NCBI GenBank assembly: GCA_963921275.4
Contig: OZ001293.3
Coordinates: forward strand, 4,992,001 to 5,056,000
Direction: 5' to 3'
DNA from: an uncultured Hormoscilla sp.
GTDB lineage: Bacteria; Cyanobacteriota; Cyanobacteriia; Cyanobacteriales; Desertifilaceae
DNA: 64,000 bases
Shown: positions 1,818 through 62,161 of the stretch, one piece after another
Layout of the letters: every line of letters begins with the position of its first letter
Numbering within the stretch: position 1 is the stretch's first letter
Program-made: the position numbers and the translations under genes
Notes under the pieces: generated by a model
Seen by the model: only the letters and a program-made list of their open reading frames with translations
The model's database searches: none
What the model was told of the DNA's origin: nothing

Positions 1818-2725
<908 letters not shown>

Positions 2726-10400: not shown

Positions 10401-10646
10401 CAATACTTCTCAACTAATAACTTGTCATTGCGAGGGGGCTCAATCACGAGCATTCTTCCGATCGCGCAGCGTGGCGCAGCCATTCCCCGCGCTTAATCCT
10501 CCCCCGGAACGCGCAGCGGCCCGACGCCAGGAGGGCTAGCAATCTCACCGACGACGCCAAAGCACTCTTCCTCTCATACGGGGCGGGGGATTGCTTCGGG
10601 GGGGGTTAACTCAATGACAACCTATATCCTTAACCGAGAGGTATTG
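10401..10646. mobile_element. MITE with CAATACTTCTC-type terminal inverted repeats and 10-bp target duplication
   Basis: Ends caatacttctc / gagaggtattg; ggtactcctc duplicated at 10391-10400 and 10647-10656; internal sequence shared with 32452-32713, 56506-56684, 58483-58600. Confidence 0.85.
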
Positions 10647-18264: not shown

Positions 18265-19944
18265 TTATACGGCTGCGATTTTTCGGACCGTCCGCGGGCC
18301 GATCGCCTCAACCGCTTGTTCGTATTGAGGATGCAGGCGATCGCCCGTTTGCTGGGTCGTATACAAGCGATTCAGGGCATTGACATAAGCCTGGGCGGAA
18401 GCTACGATTATATCCGTATGGGCAGCATGACCGGAAAACACTTGTTCTTCATGCTTCAATCGGATCGTTACTTCTCCGATCGCATCTATACCCGCCGTCA
18501 CCGACTGCACTGAAAACTCAATCAACTGATTCGGCACATTTACCACGCGGTTAATCGCCTTGTAAATCGCATCTACAGGACCAGTCCCGATCGCTGCATC
18601 TGTAAGTTCCTCCCCTGCGGGGGTGCGGACAGTGACAGTGGCCGTCGGATGGGAATGGTCGCCGCAGGAAACCTGCACCAAATTCAAGCGGAACATTTCC
18701 GGGACTTGCTGGAATTCATTATTAACGATCGCCTCCAAATCCCAGTCAGTAATTTCCTTCTTCTTATCCGCCAAAATTTTGAACTTGAGAAACGCATGAT
18801 TAACATCCGTCTCCGAAAGTTCAAATCCCAATTCCCGCAAGCGAGTGCCAAAAGCATTCCGACCCGAATGCTTGCCCAGGATAATCTGATTATCATTCAA
18901 ACCGATCGACTGAGCATCCATAATCTCATAAGTCAGCTTATGCTTGAGCACCCCATCTTGGTGGATACCCGACTCGTGGGCAAAAGCATTCGCCCCCACG
19001 ATCGCCTTATTTGGTTGCACCAGCATCCCCGTCAGGTTAGAAACCAAGCGAGAAGTCTTGTAAATTTCCCGGGTATTAATCTGAGTCAGGGGTTCCGCAG
19101 ACTCGGCTGGGCGTCCAAAGAAAGGATTATAATAGGAACGCCGCACGTGCAAAGCCATCACCAACTCTTCCAGGGCGGCATTTCCGGCCCGTTCTCCAAT
19201 CCCATTAATCGTGCATTCCAACTGTCGGACCCCATTTTCCACCGCCGCCAAGAAATTGGCCACCGCCAAGCCCAAATCATTGTGACCGTGGACCGAAATT
19301 ATCGCCCGATCGATATTCGGGACATTTTCTCTTATCCCTCTAATCAAACCCCCAAACTCCCCAGGGGTAGTATAGCCCACAGTATCCGGGATATTCACCG
19401 TCGTTGCCCCAGCCGCGATCGCCCTTTCGAGAACCTCATACAGAAATTCTGGGTCCGATCGGCCCGCATCTTCCGGAGAGAATTCCACATCCTCCACAAA
19501 GGACTTAGCATATGCTACCATTTCTGAAGTAATTGCCAACACCTCAGCCCTTGACTTTCTCAGCTTATACTGCAAGTGGATGTCAGAGGTCGCAATAAAC
19601 GTATGAATGCGGGGGCGTGCCGCAGGTTTTACCGCCTCACCAGCAGCCTTAATATCTTGCTCCGTAGCTCTGGCCAACCCGCAGATCGTCGGGCCATCGG
19701 GAGTCCCCACCTGGGAGGCAATCCTTTGCACCGCTGCAAAATCCCCTTTACTGGCATAAGGGAAGCCTGCCTCAATCACATCCACACCCAGTCGTGCCAG
19801 TTGCCGGGCGATCGCCAGCTTCTCATCCACATTCAGAGTGGCCCCGGGACATTGTTCTCCATCCCGGAGGGTCGTATCGAAGATAATGATGCGGTCTGCC
19901 ATGGAGTCAATTTTACTTTTCATTCTATCACAACAAGTTAACAT
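18265..19944 (-). CDS. leuA: 2-isopropylmalate synthase
   Basis: [36 protein letters not shown] and C-terminal regulatory domain. Confidence 0.97.
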
Positions 19945-20022
19945 GGGAAGTAGATAAGATTATTGTAACTCCTACATTGACTTTGATGAAATATACTACC
20001 CTGCTAGGCGCTGCCAGCAGTA

Positions 20023-26128: not shown

Positions 26129-26357
26129 GATATTATCTCCTAGTTGTGAGTGGTTACTGGTCGCTGGTCGCTGATCATCGATCCCATGCCTACCGTACCA
26201 TCACAGCCATTACAGGGACAAATTTGAGGATCAGGATCCCTTTCCGATAAGATTGCGCTGCGCGCACGCTACGCGATCGAAAAATGCTTTAGAATTGTAC
26301 GGCCCGTAGTCGGTAACCCGTCGCGGACTAGGTTGATATATTACCCCCGAAGAGGTT

Positions 26358-32451: not shown

Positions 32452-32713
32452 CAATACTTCAAGGGCATTTTATTTGTCATTGCGAGGGGGGGGTACCGTG
32501 GCGATTAACTTATGCTCAAGCGAGTTAACCCCCCCCGAAGCAATCCCCCTCGCCCTGTATGAGATGAAGATCATGCGCGGCGTCGTCGGTGAGATTGCTA
32601 GCCCTCCTGGCGTCGGGCCGCTGCGAAGGCCGGGGGGATCATCGCTTGGAGCCCTAAAATGTCAGTTTTAATTTCCCCCTGGCTCCGGACAGATTGTTAA
32701 CCGAGAAGTATTG
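32452..32713. mobile_element. MITE, same family as 10401-10646, with 10-bp target duplication
   Basis: Ends caatacttc / gaagtattg; actgtggctc at 32442-32451 and 32714-32723. Confidence 0.85.
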
Positions 32714-42036: not shown

Positions 42037-42907
42037 GGATGGGGTCGAGCCGGGAATCGCTTCCCGACCCTCCCTTGAGGAACCGGACTTGCGATTTTCA
42101 CCGCATCCGGCTACTGGGTACTAGGCCCTTTTCATAGGTAGACTTAATAGGAATTACTTCCGTTAGCCCTTGCCGCCTGTCTTTTCTTCCCTTTCCTGGT
42201 TTAGCGAGTGGTTGTTCTGATAACCGTTAGTATCACCATTTTCAAGTCAGTTTTACCAGTTATCCATACCTTATCCTCCACTTGCGTTTCGGATTAGTTC
42301 CGTGGCTTTTTAGGATTACTCATTCCAGCAGCTTCCTAGTATCACCGACCCACGTCAGCGCTGGCTACCCAGCATCATCTACATTACTGTAGATGTTATC
42401 CCAGGAATTACCCCGGGCATTCGCTTCTTGGGCCATCCCTCCCCCCGTGGCTTGCGCTTAACATCTAACTTGTCCTGATGGACAGCACACGAGAGGTTAC
42501 TTCGTTCCCTAACAACATTTCGCGATACCTTTAGGTCCACACTATACCCCGGGAGCTATTTGAGTACTATATTAGCCAGAGTCTAAAACTAATACTAGCT
42601 ACCATTTCCTTTTTAGGCCAGCGCATATAGCCTTATTTCGCTGGTTCCTTATAACGAGGCTTGCACATGTTTGCCTGCTCTAACCTTGGATATCTTTCCT
42701 AGCGGCGTCACCGGCTTAGGCTGCCAGTTATCCTACATTTGAGTCCTCGCTTAGCACCACGATGATGTCGCTTCGTAGCACCGAGGACCGGTGTCACCCC
42801 CGTACCTGGGGGGAGGGGAATTTAACCCCCATGCGGTCAGAGTTCCCGGCTAATGAAACCGGGCTAGCGTTCCGTGTTTGACCACGTTAGGCTAGAACGA
42901 ATCGCAC
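42037..42907 (-). mobile_element. ORF-less group II intron (871 nt) inserted in a REP-like repeat
   Basis: 5' GTGCGATTCGTTCTAG; DV GTAGCCGGATGCGGTGAAAATCGCAAGTCCGGTTC; empty copy of the target (gaggaacg|aaacccaacc) at about 43174-43191. Confidence 0.95.
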
Positions 42908-48323: not shown

Positions 48324-50485
48324 ATGCAGAACAAAATCCGAGAGCGAGCACTCAGTTACATTGAGATCTTGGGTGCATCTCAGTTAGGCGATGAGTATAT
48401 TTACTCAGCAAAAGTGGATTTACTGAGTCTGATTAGGCAACTAATGCGCCATTCAGGTAGGCACAGCGATGCTTCAACACCTACGGTCCGCGGACGGCCC
48501 GAAAAATCGGCACATTCTCGGCTCGCCATTGTGCCCCCGGTAATTTCACCCTTAACCCAATTTGTTTCACCAGGGACTCAACCCGACCAGAGCCAATCGA
48601 GTGCCGAGCTGCCTGCCCGTTCGCGCAGCGGCCCGACGCCAGGAGGGCTAGCCTGGTAGTCAATGATGCGCGTCTGATGGTGCTTCAAGTAGTTGATCAA
48701 CCCTGTGGCTCCCCGACATTGCTGTTGGCGCAGATAACTAATCGCCCTCTGGGTCTCCCCTCGCCACAGGAGTGCACGGTCCGCGGACGGCCCGAAAAAT
48801 CGGATCTGCACGGTCCGCGGACGGCCCGAAAAATCGGATTGAGCCGGTGTCCCTTGCACCTTATTGGCATTTTCCATTAGGTGATACCAATCGAGCACTT
48901 CGATACGTTGTTCTGGTGTCCCGATACCACTGAAAATGTTCCACACCCCATCATGACCATCTCCGAGACCGGTGAACTGCGCCCCGAGGGGCTGGGCATT
49001 CACCCACTCAAGCAGCCCTTGATTATCCTTGAAGAAAGCCACACTGCCTTGCTCATGGACATTTAAGGCTTTGTATTCTCGCCACTCACCAGGTTGACCC
49101 TCCACGGTCCGCGGACGGCCCGAAAAATCGGTACGAAGGCGAATCATGCCGCCATCCAAGCTGAGCTCCTGAATCGGTTCAGCTATCTCTACCTCAGACC
49201 AGTCCTCTCGTTGAACAAAGCGTTGGAGCGTACTGTGGGAGATGCTCACCCCAGTCAGCATCGCGAGATCTTGTACGGTCCGCGGACGGCCCGAAAAATC
49301 GGCTCTCTGGTAAGAGGCATTGGCACTGACGACCCAACAACATTTTTCCACATACGGACTCCAACGAGTTCCCGGTTTAACTTGCAGTTGTTGGGCTTGA
49401 GCAGTGGTGAGGGTTAGTTTGCCCAGGATACTGGTCAGGGTGCGCTGTTTTCCGGTGCGGCGGGAAGTCGCCGTGTTGATAAAAAAATTCCTAGTTGAGG
49501 CCAGACGTGTTCTTGGGCAAGCGCACGAACGTTTTTCTCAATGCCTTCAAGGGTGGTGAGTTCAGTGGGGTCGGCTTCCTGGTAGAGAATCGCGGCAATC
49601 GCGTCAAGATGTTGCTGGAGTTCAGCCTGCTTTTGGGAGTTCATGGGTCAAGGGTGGTCAACAGTGCCTAAATTATGTACCGTTTTGAGGGAGACAAGCA
49701 CTATGTATAATTACTCATTGCCTAACTGAGATGTACCCGAGATCTTCGGCACTGGGTTTGAGATTTTCAAAGACAACATTACCACGATTGCAGCGATCAC
49801 GCTAGCTGTCACCATTCCCTTTAGTCTGATTGATGAGATCATTATGGGATCGCTATTTCGTCCTCTTGCCGAACTGGATGCTGGGGGCCGTGAACCCGAA
49901 TTAGAGGAAATACTTGTTGCGTTTTCTCAAGTTCCCATGAAGGATTGGATCGTCTATAGCGGATTTACCATTGTGTGGGTAGTCGCCATTATTCTCATAA
50001 ATATGGCAATTTGCTACGTTGTCGAGCAATCCATTTTAAGGCGATCGGTCAGTTGGCAAGATGCCTTGAAACATTCCTTTTCTCGGTTGGGAAGTGCCAT
50101 TGGCACCTGCTTTTTAGTGGTCGCTTTCATTGCCCTGTGGTCGTTTCTGTTCATCGTCGGGGCGCTAATTCCCCTATTTTACTATCAATATGCCATCTAT
50201 GTGGTGGCACTGCGGGGTAAGGGAGGCGGAAATGCGTTAAAACACAGCAGCGATTTCGTTAAAAAGCGATCAGGAACCATATTTATAGTTCTACTGACGA
50301 TTGTTATTGCAAATATAATTGTCTGGAACGTTCTATCGAACTTGATGCAACCGCCGGTTTGGAAAACTGATTGGAACGGATTTGTTTTGGCCATTATGTC
50401 CGATTTACTTATGGCATTTCACATCACCATTGAAACCGTTTTGTTTTTGAATATAGATTACTCGCACGATGGCGAAACAGTCTAA
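48324..50485 (+). pseudogene. Membrane protein gene interrupted by an IS
   Basis: MQNKIRERALSYIEI continues as FGTGFEIFKDN...MGSLFRP once the IS and one target copy are removed. Confidence 0.8.
48371..49738 (-). mobile_element. ISKra4-family insertion sequence, inactivated by micro-insertions
   Basis: TIRs gggtgcatctcagttaggc / gcctaactgagatgtaccc; 8-bp TSD gagatctt (48363-48370, 49739-49746); SLDGGMIRLR, GDGHDGVWN, LDWYHL, IGSG.VES.VKQI motifs. Confidence 0.9.
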
Positions 50486-51690: not shown

Positions 51691-52562
51691 GTGCGATTCG
51701 TTCTAGCCTAACGTGGTCAAACACGGAACGCTAGCCCGGTTTCATTAGCCGGGAACTCTGACCGCATGGGGGTTAAATTCCCCTCCCCCCAGGTACGGGG
51801 GTGACACCGGTCCTCGGTGCTACGAAGCGACATCATCGTGGTGCTAAGCGAGGACTCAAATGTAGGGATAACTGGCAGCCTAAGCCGGTGACGCCGCTAG
51901 GAAAGATATCCAAGGTTAGAGCAGGCAAACATGTGCAAGCCTCGTTATAAGGAACCAGCGAAATAAGGCTATATGCGCTGGCCTAAAAAGGAAATGGTAG
52001 CTAGTATTAGTTTTAGACTCTGGCTAATATAGTACTCAAATAGCTCCCGGGGTATAGTGTGGACCTAAAGGTATCGCGAAATGTTGTTAGGGAACGAAGT
52101 AACCTCTCGTGTGCTGTCCATCAGGACAAGTTAGATGTTAAGCGCAAGCCACGGGGGGAGGGATGGCCCAAGAAGCGAATGCCCGGGGTAATTCCTGGGA
52201 TAACATCTACAGTAATGTAGATGATGCTGGGTAGCCAGCGCTGACGTGGGTCGGTGATACTAGGAAGCTGCTGGAATGAGTAATCCTAAAAAGCCACGGA
52301 ACTAATCCGAAACGCAAGTGGAGGATAAGGTATGGATAACTGGTAAAACTGACTTGAAAATGGTGATACTAACGGTTATCAGAACAACCACTCGCTAAAC
52401 CAGGAAAGGGAAGAAAAGACAGGCGGCAAGGGCTAACGGAAGTAATTCCTATTAAGTCTACCTATGAAAAGGGCCTAGTACCCAGTAGCCGGATGCGGTG
52501 AAAATCGCAAGTCCGGTTCCTCAAGGGAGGGTCGGGAAGCGATTCCCGGCTCGACCCCATCC
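51691..52562 (+). mobile_element. ORF-less group II intron (872 nt), near-identical to 42037-42907
   Basis: GTGCGATTCG start, DV at about 52485-52519, end CGACCCCATCC shared with the other copy before the flanks diverge. Confidence 0.95.
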
Positions 52563-58018: not shown

Positions 58019-58197
58019 GCAGCTACCACCGCCGCCCTCACCCTAAGGGGCTACACGAACAAAGCCCGCCTGCGCGGGCTAGATTACTTGCATCGAGATG
58101 TTCCCCTAGGATTCGTTTTTCAGAGTATATCCCTGAACTTCGATATCAGGTCGCAATTTCACTTCAATTCGAGTTCTAGTCTGCTCAATATCAGGTG

Positions 58198-58470: not shown

Positions 58471-58874
58471 TATGCTCAATTAAGTTAACCCCCCCGTAGC
58501 GCTGCGCGCACTTCGTAAAAGCGCAGCGGCCCGACGCTAGGAGGGCTAGCAATCTCACCGACGAAGCAGGAGCGCTCTTGATCTAATACGGGGCGGGGGG
58601 ATGGTGGGCGGTGCCCTACATCTATTTGCTCTTTCCTCGATATGCGATCGCCATGCTCGTGGGCGGTGCCTACATCTAATTGCACTTTTCCCGAGATCCG
58701 ATCGCGATGCAGTCTCGCCCCATTACATTATCAAAGAATGCGACAAAATTCCGATCGTATTTGCTCTCCCTCCCCAGATTACCCTGGAATAACAGGTAAA
58801 TTATTATACTTTTACACCCAATTGCCTCAAAATAAAGTCAAATCAAAATAGCGCTCAATCTAGGAGAGATAATT

Positions 58875-59771: not shown

Positions 59772-62161
59772 ATTAAACTAAGCCAGTCCGTCACCGGACC
59801 GACTCGTCTTCAGAACCGGACGTGAGACTTTCACCTCATCCGACTCCTCGGCAACATCACCCTTGTCATGGGTACGGCTGTTTTTGCTGCCACCGTTGAC
59901 AGTCTTTGAGTCGTGGCAATGCTTGTGCAGTAATTGTAGGTTGTCATACCGGTCCTTACCTCCTAATGAAAGGGGCTTGATCTGGTCAACTTCCCATTTG
60001 TCACTGTCCTTGAATGTTAGTCCGCAGTGTTGGCATTTTCCTTTTTGCTTCTTAAGTAGCGTTGCTACCCTCTTACTCAATTCGGGGTTTTTGCCTAACC
60101 TTGTACTCCAATATGTAAGGTTCCCGTCATATGGGCTTGCTATTCCTTTCACTTTTACGTGTCTGACTATCTCAGTTTCGGAGTGTTTGCGCAGCGTTAT
60201 CTCTCCCTCTCCTGTCTTACATCGGAATCGCCATTTACCATCCTGGTCTACGGACCAGTACTTACGGGCTATCCAGTGACTTGACTTATTAGGGTGCCTC
60301 CTTTTGGCCCATTGCCATAGGATGTTCCATAGGTATTTATCCATATCGTTGTAAGTTTCCTTACTTACCACTGTCCTGTAATAGTTTGACCATCCCCGTA
60401 TTATTGGGTTTAGCCTACTTATCAAGGCCTCTTGCGGTATTGTTTTATGGCTAGTTACCACTTCTGATAACCGTTCTTTATGTTTCCCTATGGACTTTTT
60501 ACTGGGTTTGATTAGGGTTTTGTAGCCTAGGGGTGTTCCCTGAGTTGATTTGCCGGTTCTGTGTTTTCCCACCTGATGTTGCCTTACGTTGAATCCTAGG
60601 AAATCAAACCCCGGGTTTTCTTCGATTAGTGTGTGGGCTATCTTTGTCTTTTCGGCTTTCAGCTCTAACCCCATTCCTTTTAGCCACTCTGCTACCACTG
60701 TCTGCGCTCTGTCTATCATCTCCCTATCCTCGTGCATTATCACAAAGTCGTCTGCATATCTAACTACTGTTAGCTTCTGCTTTTCCCTTTGTGTCATAGC
60801 GAGTTTCTTTACTGCCTCCTCTAACCCGTGGAGGGCTATGTTGGCTAGCAGTGGGGATATGACACCCCCTTGGGGCGTTCCCGCCTCGGTTGCGTGCCAC
60901 TCCCCTTTGTCCATCACACCGGCTTTTAACCATGCCCGTATTTGTCTAGGAATGGGTGATGTTGTATTCAGTTTTTCCAGTAGCGCCCTGTGGTCTATCT
61001 TGTCAAAACATTTTGCAATATCAGCATCCAATACCCACTTTGATTTTTGTTTGATGCTTCCGAATATTGCCTGTATTGCATCGTGACATCCCCTACCCGG
61101 TCTGAAACCATAGGAGTTTCCTTCCATATGCGCCTCCCATTCGGGTTCAAGCGCAATTTTGAGGAGTCCTTGTGTCGCCCGGTCGTACATCGTTGGTATT
61201 CCTAGTGGACGCTTTTCGTCTCTCCCTGGTTTTGGTATCCATACACGACGTGTAGGTTTGGCCTTGTTTGAGATTTCAATTTGTCCTACCAGTTCTAAGC
61301 GTTGCTTTGGGGTCAGTGCTTTTACACCGTCCACTCCCGCTGTCTTCTTTCCCTGGTTGTCTTGAGTTACCTGTCGTACCGCTAGACTTTTGGCAGCCCG
61401 GGATTTTACCAGTAACCTTTGGAGTCTGCGAACCGTTCGCTTATTGCCTTCCATTGCCGCTCTGTAAATTCGTTTTTGCAACTTAAAGACTACCCGATCC
61501 AACTTTCGCCAGGGGGTATCCTTCCATTCATTCATCGATTCGGAGATCGTGCTCATGACGTATGCATTGCTACTTACAACTTCACAATTGACGTTACCGT
61601 GAGGGCGTCAGCATATCCCGTCCATTACAGAAGGGCGTTAGCTTCTCCACGAAATCTCTCCCAGATACAACCTGCCAAATAAAAGCAGATGTTGCGCCTG
61701 TGGTGGCTACTCAACCTATCGACCTGTGGTTGAGAGTATGTACCTGGTTTACTTCGTTCCTCTAGATGATTGGTCGTAGTTTTAGGTGGACTTTCTATGC
61801 CGGGTTTATTGTCAGTGCTTATTGGTCGGAAAAACAACCGCCAATGACCTGTATCCTTTCCCTTTTGGGCCAGCGCATCAGCCTTTTCGCTGGTTCAATG
61901 TAACGACACTTATATGAGTCTTTGCTTTCGCTCACCATGACTACTTGCTTGGCGGTAACTGGTTCAGGCTACCAGTTATTGCGCCTTTCTTACCCGCTTT
62001 ACGGATTGATGCCATCGCTACCGTCGGGTAAGTGCTGTCACTCCTGCACCTGGAGGGGTGGACTTTCACCACCATCATCTAGAAGTTGTCAGGGCTGATG
62101 GAACCCTGCCAGTGGTCCCCCATCGACTTATCGCCGGTGGTTTACACTAAACGAATCGCAC
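59772..62161 (-). mobile_element. Full-length group II intron (2390 nt, chloroplast-like class) with IEP
   Basis: 5' GTGCGATTCGTTTAG at 62161, DV GAGTCGGATGAGGTGAAAGTCTCACGTCCGGTTC, 3' GGCTTAGTTTAAT. Confidence 0.95.
59778..61556 (-). CDS. ltrA: Group II intron reverse transcriptase/maturase with C-terminal HNH-like domain
   Basis: RPLGIPT, SYGFRPGR, GTPQGGVISPLL, VRYADDF, FDFLGF, LNPIIRGWSNYY, CQHC...HKHCH. Confidence 0.96.
   Translation of the reverse strand: MSTISESMNEWKDTPWRKLDRVVFKLQKRIYRAAMEGNKRTVRRLQRLLVKSRAAKSLAVRQVTQDNQGKKTAGVDGVKALTPKQRLELVGQIEISNKAKPTRRVWIPKPGRDEKRPLGIPTMYDRATQGLLKIALEPEWEAHMEGNSYGFRPGRGCHDAIQAIFGSIKQKSKWVLDADIAKCFDKIDHRALLEKLNTTSPIPRQIRAWLKAGVMDKGEWHATEAGTPQGGVISPLLANIALHGLEEAVKKLAMTQREKQKLTVVRYADDFVIMHEDREMIDRAQTVVAEWLKGMGLELKAEKTKIAHTLIEENPGFDFLGFNVRQHQVGKHRTGKSTQGTPLGYKTLIKPSKKSIGKHKERLSEVVTSHKTIPQEALISRLNPIIRGWSNYYRTVVSKETYNDMDKYLWNILWQWAKRRHPNKSSHWIARKYWSVDQDGKWRFRCKTGEGEITLRKHSETEIVRHVKVKGIASPYDGNLTYWSTRLGKNPELSKRVATLLKKQKGKCQHCGLTFKDSDKWEVDQIKPLSLGGKDRYDNLQLLHKHCHDSKTVNGGSKNSRTHDKGDVAEESDEVKVSRPVLKTSRSGDGLA

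Follow-up and report, generated by a model that had tools for sequence, protein, structure and literature searches.

The stretch of DNA examined here, hereafter the window, comprises 64,000 nucleotides (C1:4992001-5056000) of the genome of an uncultured Hormoscilla (7.03 Mb, G000, with a chromosome of 6.88 Mb), and it carries an insertion sequence (IS) whose transposase gene is interrupted by five identical copies of the 24-nucleotide sequence TTTTTCGGGCCGTCCGCGGACCGT. This 24-mer occurs in two forms that differ in their last base, of which the five copies in the IS represent the T-ending one (T-type). The features of the IS and its borders are listed in window coordinates, with a slash marking a point of insertion.

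48363..48370, minus strand: right copy of the 8-bp target duplication AAGATCTC that flanks the host IS
48371..49738, minus strand: host IS of the ISKra4 family, 1368 bp, with terminal inverted repeats (GGGTACATCTCAGTTAGGC...)
48483..48506, minus strand: insert 5, T-type 24-mer, with GCCGA on its 5' side and AGGTG on its 3' side, within ENVP/KVLKHRCAYLNG
48619..48649, minus strand: 31-nt insert of a second, unrelated GC-rich micro-repeat family, without counterpart in a relative of the IS from a congener (G004:C39)
48776..48799, minus strand: insert 4, T-type 24-mer, TCCGA 5' and GCACT 3', 10 nt downstream of insert 3, read as FFGPSADR
48810..48833, minus strand: insert 3, T-type 24-mer, TCCGA 5', where empty relatives have GGAGA
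49104..49127, minus strand: insert 2, T-type 24-mer, ACCGA 5' and GGAGG 3', directly past the conserved transposase block LDGGMIRLRT
49275..49298, minus strand: insert 1, T-type 24-mer, exact match, GCCGA 5' and ACAAG 3', read as DFSGRPRT
49480..49487, minus strand: T7 run with the heptamer T_TTT_TTA, in phase with the upstream open reading frame (ORF), a 1-nt deletion lying just upstream
49739..49746, minus strand: left copy of the 8-bp target duplication AAGATCTC that flanks the host IS

The earlier note on this DNA, made from the sequence of the window alone, had described five identical micro-insertions in one orientation, and five exact minus-strand matches indeed lie at the coordinates it gave. 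The 24-mer never arose in 100 dinucleotide-preserving shuffles (mean count 0, maximum 0). CCGA directly precedes each of the five, as the note had it, and the inserts span all three codon phases, inserts 1-3 being translated as DFSGRPRT, insert 4 as FFGPSADR and insert 5 as IFRAVRGP.

The five 24-mers are true insertions of a tiny mobile repeat into an ISKra4-family IS. All five are missing from G004:C39, a relative of the IS that is itself split by an unrelated 2-kb insertion, and this insert-free copy reads across every junction (among them GCCGA/ACAAG, ACCGA/GGAGG, TCCGA/GCACT and GCCGA/AGGTG), which shows that the insert boundaries proposed earlier are exact and that no target duplication is present. 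A second relative in the same congener, internally deleted (G004:C3), has sites 1 and 5 empty, and sites 1-4 are empty in a 978-nt contig of ~96% identity from an unrelated sediment RNA library (run X12), where carry-over of DNA is possible; coverage of the stretch in runs X5 and X12 is partial, and the uncovered parts are uninformative. The absence of both terminal inverted repeats and target duplications, already noticed for the five IS sites, extends to 45 empty sites in the genus. The extra peptides, whose presence in all active homologs the earlier note had set against its own reading, occur in none of 11 aligned homologous transposases (45-81% identity), the alignment showing gaps of exactly 8, 8 and 16 residues; at the position of insert 2 all 11 homologs have the 8-residue gap, the homologs read ENVPKVLKHRCAYLNG where this copy has insert 5, and the inserts fall outside the invariant blocks of the alignment. 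The peptides that the note had restored by removing the inserts need correction at one point, since the ancestral form of site 3 is CAAGGAGA/GCAG, not CAATCCGA, in both G004:C39 and the run X12 contig, giving Q-G-E-Q instead of Q-S-E-Q; the insert boundaries themselves stand. At this site both empty relatives have GGAGA versus TCCGA here, three adjacent changes thus creating the target.

That the 24-mers might be an assembly error, or a native ancestral peptide repeat of the transposase family, is so improbable that it hardly needs weighing. Junctions between insert and flank are present in contigs of independent runs, namely run X4 (probably the source study) and, from another study, a 302-base contig of run X6 that crosses insert 1 with zero differences; the element also occurs in four other genomes, and both the empty relatives and the homologs without the peptides speak against a native repeat.

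The host is recognizable as an IS by its inverted ends, its multiple copies (12 two-ended copies in the genome with ~99% mutual identity) and the 7-8-bp direct repeat that accompanies each two-ended copy. Its main ORF matches NCBIfam NF033572 (E 7.8e-32) with 110.9 bits, below the 205-bit cut-off because the transposase gene is split into pieces, and the closest named homolog of the transposase, 67% identical, is annotated as 'ISKra4 family transposase'. In the portion of the literature consulted, ISKra4 is a group of Mutator-type DDE transposases with a sister group that employs a -1 frameshift (PMC3942029). The reading frame is broken by lesions other than the 24-mers. The 31-nt insert, bounded by GCT and GG microhomologies, shifts the frame and truncates the C-terminus of the transposase; loose contig ends in three runs cluster in its region (48616-48652). 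In this genome its parent repeat occurs ~20 more times beyond the IS, and congeners have many copies; within the window members of this second GC-rich family (…GATTGCTAGCCCTCCTGGCGTCGGGCCGCTGCGCTAACGGGGGG…) also lie at 10512-10533 (-), 32604-32625 (+) and 58522-58543 (-). The other lesion is a 1-nt deletion, relative to G004:C39, upstream of T_TTT_TTA in all 12 genomic IS copies, deletion and heptamer falling within 49480-49510 of the window. To judge from the reading frames, a -1 slip at this heptamer would fuse the N-terminal ORF with the main ORF again, in the frame seen in continuous homologs, one of which (P0004) has LPQLGGFFIN across the same place. As to sources of transposase in trans, the genome holds no relative of the protein above 48% amino-acid identity. 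Four IS copies also contain a nested 926-bp non-coding repeat beginning with 5' GTGCG (IS position 552/553; G000:C1:3483536-3484461), which has hundreds of genomic copies that are 80-99% identical; a group II intron was considered for this repeat and set aside, there being no Rfam match at E 0.01 or better.

The genome-wide map that the earlier note had proposed yields 84 copies of the 24-mer at <=4 mismatches, 53 of them exact, divided 42/42 between the strands. As many as 53 of the 84 sit in 13 loci of the host IS, always at the same five positions; 12 of these loci are two-ended, three of them with internal deletions, and the remaining one is a fragment. The clustering is therefore not a property of this locus, as had been supposed, for all 12 two-ended copies share the same five inserts and each has its own 7-8-bp direct repeat, so that the laden IS must have transposed at least 11 times. 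The five inserts, the 31-nt insert and the 1-nt deletion accordingly all predate at least 11 transposition events. The five inserts were acquired once, in an ancestral IS copy, and the IS kept transposing afterwards. A single copy (C1:3072071) has partly lost insert 4 (9 nt), and a sixth 24-mer has been gained in no IS copy of the genome, the CCGAG at IS position 1220 being free throughout.

Why a single IS should have received five inserts is a separate question. Some CCGA sites of the IS are unoccupied, as the note had remarked (three of the eight on the sense strand), and among the CCGA/R sites predating insertion five of six are occupied on the sense strand and none of three on the antisense strand. 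Outside the IS, a T-type copy is found at only ~8 of 21,478 genomic CCGAR sites. Five inserts in 1.25 kb thus represent an excess of about three orders of magnitude, for which relaxed selection alone is insufficient. Clustering on the kilobase scale, which the note had suggested examining, is moderately above chance in three genomes (pairs within 2 kb: 8 vs 1.3 expected in G004 and 2 vs 0.24 expected in G000; pairs within 10 kb: 6 vs 1.75 expected in G002), at least one clustered pair being a duplicated context, and local spread by copying in cis is therefore possible. The note had also raised targeted silencing of the mobile element, and the near-complete filling of the sense-strand sites, together with the presence of a second micro-repeat family in the same IS, is what one might expect if the host or the micro-element had deliberately disabled it. 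We nevertheless regard this as highly unlikely. Every 24-mer preserves the frame, adding eight codons and no stop, and the inserts avoid the invariant blocks of the transposase alignment; the laden IS went on to produce at least 11 new insertions, none of which acquired a sixth insert after the burst; and across the genus most copies of the element lie in ordinary genes and spacers, not in IS. With the frame kept and transposition continuing, silencing is unsupported.

The same tolerance is apparent elsewhere in the genome. Read directly, the 24-mer amounts to 8 codons, and none of its six frames has a stop; of the 31 G000 copies that are not in the IS, 15 fall in ORFs of at least 200 codons, the affected genes including coaBC-like, miaB-like radical-SAM, trigger factor, leuA-like, coxB-like and queC genes as well as DNA methylase domains; in a congener, polA contains two copies. 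Judged by these ORFs and their predicted products, the element lengthens proteins rather than breaking them, sitting in frame in housekeeping genes. Genus-wide, copies in genes show no sense-strand bias (10 sense vs 17 antisense for the T-type, and 14 vs 23 for the A-ending form, or A-type). Two T-type copies lie only 393 bp apart (G000:C1:5085017 and 5085410), one in an unassigned 233-codon ORF and the other where a gene for an N6/N4 DNA methylase has its 3' end, this second copy being common to G000 and a congener.

The genus was searched with a 23-base pattern allowing one mismatch in 41 genomes, 5 of Hormoscilla and 36 of others. The five Hormoscilla genomes contain 83, 12, 34, 181 and 67 copies, and there were no matches in the 36 genomes, which represent 29 other genera of the same order. 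A scan of the genomes of ~185,000 species returned at least 107 loci, and among the 80 matches listed all were Hormoscilla; viral contigs and JGI metagenome contigs gave 0 matches. Mobility within the genus is evident from comparing orthologous sites. Among 113 copies in the four congeners with enough flanking sequence, 55 have colinear flanks in G000, four of which are filled in G000 too, and the rest collapse to 45 distinct, base-exact empty sites, with no partial or sliding junctions seen. Most insertions are therefore younger than the ~6% divergence between Hormoscilla species. Among all the matches listed here, this mobile repeat is confined to the genus Hormoscilla.

Comparison of the flanks separates the two subfamilies by target as well as by last base, the flank sets being non-redundant across the five genomes although some of the 46 T-type and 86 A-type flanks stem from repeated contexts and are only partly independent of one another. 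T-type copies follow CYGA and precede a purine (n=46: C 46, Y 45, made up of C 36 and T 9, G 45 and A 46 before the element; R 44 after it), and they all lie outside HIP1, the five IS inserts included. A-type copies instead split the core of the HIP1 palindrome (n=86: C 83, G 84 and A 86 before the element; T 83, C 81, G 75 and C 59 after it). Against the genomic background, in which TCG follows only 14% of CGA and a purine follows 44% of CYGA, both target preferences are far beyond chance. CGA/TCG, the HIP1 core, is the site of 74 of the 86 A-type copies, only 15 of these 74 being full HIP1; position -4 has three times as much C as expected and too little G, with A at 0 of 74 sites vs 11% in the background. 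At the asymmetric CCGATCGC sites the orientation of the A-type is 31:1, with the T-run side toward CCGA. The right boundary of the T-type is exact at all 46 sites, and the element's 3' CCGW is unchanged beside GCGA, TCGA or CTGA flanks, so it is part of the element and not a target duplication. An exchange of G9 and A20 is seen in 31 of the 86 A-type copies vs one of the 46 T-type copies; the swap to A9 and G20 is not a Watson-Crick compensation. The window itself holds one A-type copy, a 3-mismatch variant of TTTTTCGGGCCGTCCGCGGACCGT.

18279..18302, plus strand: A-type copy (G/A-swapped variant) splitting a full HIP1 octamer, GCGA/TCGC

A distance of 11 nt separates this copy from the stop of the leuA-like ORF at 18268-19959 on the minus strand, which has Pfam HMGL-like and LeuA_dimer matches. 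The insertion site is empty in all four congeners, which have an intact GCGATCGC there. The note had compared the inserts with the small dispersed repeats (SDRs), and SDR-like properties are indeed present in the length of 24 nt, the precise empty and filled sites and the one subfamily that splits the HIP1 core; the note's setting among the Nostocales does not apply, Hormoscilla belonging to the order Gomontiellales.

Several other sequences share some of these traits. A third family, the dispersed 24-mer ATGCGCTGCGCGCACGCTACGCGA, is present in the window at 26253-26276 (+) and in 51 genomic copies with 42 distinct left flanks; it lies mostly between xCGA and TCG and has the same length and bond as the A-type. 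It came from a survey of further short sequences that split CGA from TCG, in which six of the top candidates were inspected; this 24-mer alone was truly dispersed, and five proved to be pieces of larger repeats with fixed flanks. Two loci on contigs of the Hormoscilla metagenome-assembled genome SP12CHS1 (L092 and L069) carry 'double-ended' forms of the element, with T5 to the left and A5 to the right of the core, and the ortholog of L092 in G000 is plain CGA/TCG within a longer palindrome.

Taken jointly, insertion after CCGA in an ancestral IS, at least 11 later transpositions of that IS, a stop-free element of eight codons and its division into two subfamilies make up an account that we hold to be very probably correct.

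How the 24-mer moves must be approached through its targets. The flank CYGA is complementary to TCGG at element bases 5-8 if Y is allowed a G.T wobble, and the CCGA or CCGT that ends the element on its 3' side could pair with the same TCGG; from this complementarity we infer that the target may be chosen by base-pairing on a single strand, of DNA or RNA, while a host enzyme acting in trans would do the chemistry. The chances that recognition is pairing-based seem to us about even. Our leading guess for the chemistry, put forward tentatively as one possibility among several, is a single-strand 'peel and paste' reaction of the IS200/IS605 type or of the type of the REP-associated tyrosine transposases (RAYTs). 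A circle of 24 nt is physically feasible only when single-stranded. Filled A-type HIP1 sites are predicted to fold into a continuous hairpin of -11 to -12.6 kcal/mol vs -5 to -7 +/- 1.8 for shuffles (DNA parameters), in which the two halves of HIP1 are paired, T1-T4 form a bulge, T5 is matched with A24 and the stem CGG-G-CCG/CGG-A-CCG closes a TCCG loop.

A bolder version, which we think unlikely, would make the 24-mer the cargo of a base-pairing-guided insertion of single-stranded DNA that brings its own guide, the change of its end from A to T having retargeted it from the HIP1 core to CYGA/R. The retargeted form would then nearly have saturated one strand of a single IS, perhaps since transposing IS DNA is exposed single-stranded. 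If this were true, the element would be the smallest self-guiding mobile DNA known, a 'writer' in nature of eight codons free of stops, and through it one could approach the question of why insertions are drawn to HIP1 palindromes.

A number of observations weigh against single-strand transposition. The internal hairpin of the element is weak, its 7 bp being interrupted at the centre by a G.A mismatch (-7.2 kcal/mol vs -3.7 +/- 1.6 for shuffles), and T-type sites retain only this inner hairpin, their fold lying ~2 standard deviations below shuffles. No enzyme linked to the element was found: Y1 genes (PF01797) occur in 38 of the 41 genomes vs the element in five, so that the presence of Y1 does not track the element, and no 24-mer lies within ~1 kb of the Y1 gene of G000, which other repeats flank, or within 10 kb of the listed Y1 loci of G002 and G004. 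The requirement of the A-type for TCG on the right is not predicted by the IS608 model. Variants of the proposed guide, TTTTTAGG and TTTCT, proved to be post-insertion mutations at ordinary sites and are uninformative as to covariation between guide and target. The one-strand pattern within the IS is statistically weak (five of six vs none of three; Fisher ~0.05, by hand arithmetic). GC skew, cumulated along the 6.88-Mb chromosome, is too flat and irregular to give an origin from which to judge a replication-strand bias. The RAYT-like Y1 gene of G000 (G000:C1:241795-242139) has on its flanks hairpin repeats of its own and a tandem array of ~70-nt units.

The pairing could also involve RNA. In such a route a small structured RNA containing the 24-mer would be copied into DNA sites with which it pairs, for example by the reverse transcriptase of one of the genome's many group II introns, and RNA intermediates were reportedly favoured by Elhai and colleagues in their 2008 study of SDRs. 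G.U pairing is consistent with the wobble that the target tolerates at -3 (Y) and +1 (R), and four group II intron domain V/VI matches lie within the window. G.T wobble is, however, equally possible in single-stranded DNA, the targets are without an A-rich or primer-like feature, genes show no sense-strand bias, and a source RNA gene was not found, which leaves this route doubtful. The intron matches are at 1854-1931 (-), 42039-42115 (-), 52484-52560 (+) and 59772-59848 (-), and a CRISPR-DR28 match is at 58058-58081 (+).

The element might also spread without any dedicated enzyme, through breaks at CGATCG or CCGA whose repair, by template switching or gene conversion, uses short homology to copy from another, filled site. 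The A-type is flanked by CGA...CGA/TCG and shares 3-4 nt of homology at both junctions with every other filled site; the filled alleles of IS site 3 and of two further loci (L106 and L133) differ by 2-3 adjacent bases that create a YCGA flank, and the microhomologies that bound the 31-nt insert of the other repeat family are of a kind that such repair could use. Yet the T-type has no right-side homology (only R), and its right boundary is exact at all 46 sites. There is likewise no general conversion tract, the mismatch adjoining the insert being 7.2% and 6.1% vs 5.8% farther off, the excess at -3 and +3 is a C/T change at CpG, and partial or sliding junctions are not seen. Repair copying is thus, in our estimation, rather improbable, and of the mechanisms set out here the single-strand 'peel and paste' reaction is still our leading guess.

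The interest of these insertions lies partly in where they occur. Published descriptions of SDRs come from a single cyanobacterial lineage, and how they move has been a standing question since 2008. A second, unrelated lineage now offers clean data, with dozens of exact empty and filled pairs, two subfamilies, a complement to the target within the element and a 31:1 orientation, and the mechanism is therefore testable with oligonucleotides and candidate nucleases. Such elements can extend essential proteins by eight residues, and an IS can bear six micro-insertions yet keep spreading. In the open-access literature searched, no description of such elements outside Nostocaceae was found, and a search for Hormoscilla transposases likewise found nothing related.

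The closest known system is SDR5 of Nostocaceae, compared here by description and not by sequence. SDRs were reportedly described by Elhai and colleagues in 2008 as repeats of 21-27 nt in Nostocaceae. The 24-mer resembles them in its length class, its dispersed near-identical copies, its precise insertion polymorphism and its restriction to one narrow lineage. SDR5 lies within HIP1 (GCGATCGC), between nucleotides 3 and 4, according to the part of the published account consulted (PMC4390886), and the bond used by the A-type is compatible with that position within a boundary ambiguity of 4-5 nt. The two differ in that the A-type does not prefer full HIP1 but favours CCGA, and in that the T-type, a one-base variant, left HIP1 for CYGA/R and accumulated in an IS. 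They also differ in host: the excerpt available of a second source states that SDR-like repeats were not found outside Nostocaceae (PMC5861425), whereas the 24-mer belongs to Hormoscilla of the Gomontiellales.

To the IS200/IS605 elements IS608 and ISDra2 the relation is one of resemblance, not membership. Insertion is 3' of a fixed tetranucleotide and in one orientation (CYGA/ in 45 of 46 T-type copies; 31:1 for the A-type), the 3' end of the 24-mer resembles the target, and a short internal sequence is complementary to both; there are also neither target duplications nor terminal inverted repeats, as in the sections consulted of PMC6006769. The same sections give those elements hundreds of bases and two subterminal hairpins (PMC6006769), in contrast to 24 nt and one weak hairpin, and the 24-mer is without a linked tnpA and, in its A-type, also needs a right-flank motif. 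With the repetitive extragenic palindromic (REP) sequences and REPINs mobilised by RAYTs, as portrayed in the parts of the two sources consulted (PMC3116915, PMC6006769), it shares the character of a short, GC-rich hairpin repeat of high copy number, specific to a lineage and presumably mobilised in trans, but it is not extragenic (15 of 31 copies in long ORFs) and has no GTAG head. Nor is it arranged in inverted doublets as a rule, and the repeats that flank the RAYT-like gene of G000 are different ones.

The palindromic elements of Rickettsia, of ~100-150 bp, insert in frame into genes for proteins, among them housekeeping genes, and are not known to require a fixed tetranucleotide as target; they are comparable as selfish, stop-free peptide additions in frame, but they are larger and belong to another phylum. 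Miniature inverted-repeat transposable elements are likewise small, non-autonomous, multicopy and also carried within other mobile elements, but they have terminal inverted repeats and target duplications, neither of which the 24-mer has, and measure at least 100 bp. What is new in Hormoscilla is therefore the second lineage, the subfamily that does not use HIP1 and the carriage by a still-mobile IS, the kind of element itself being known from the SDRs.

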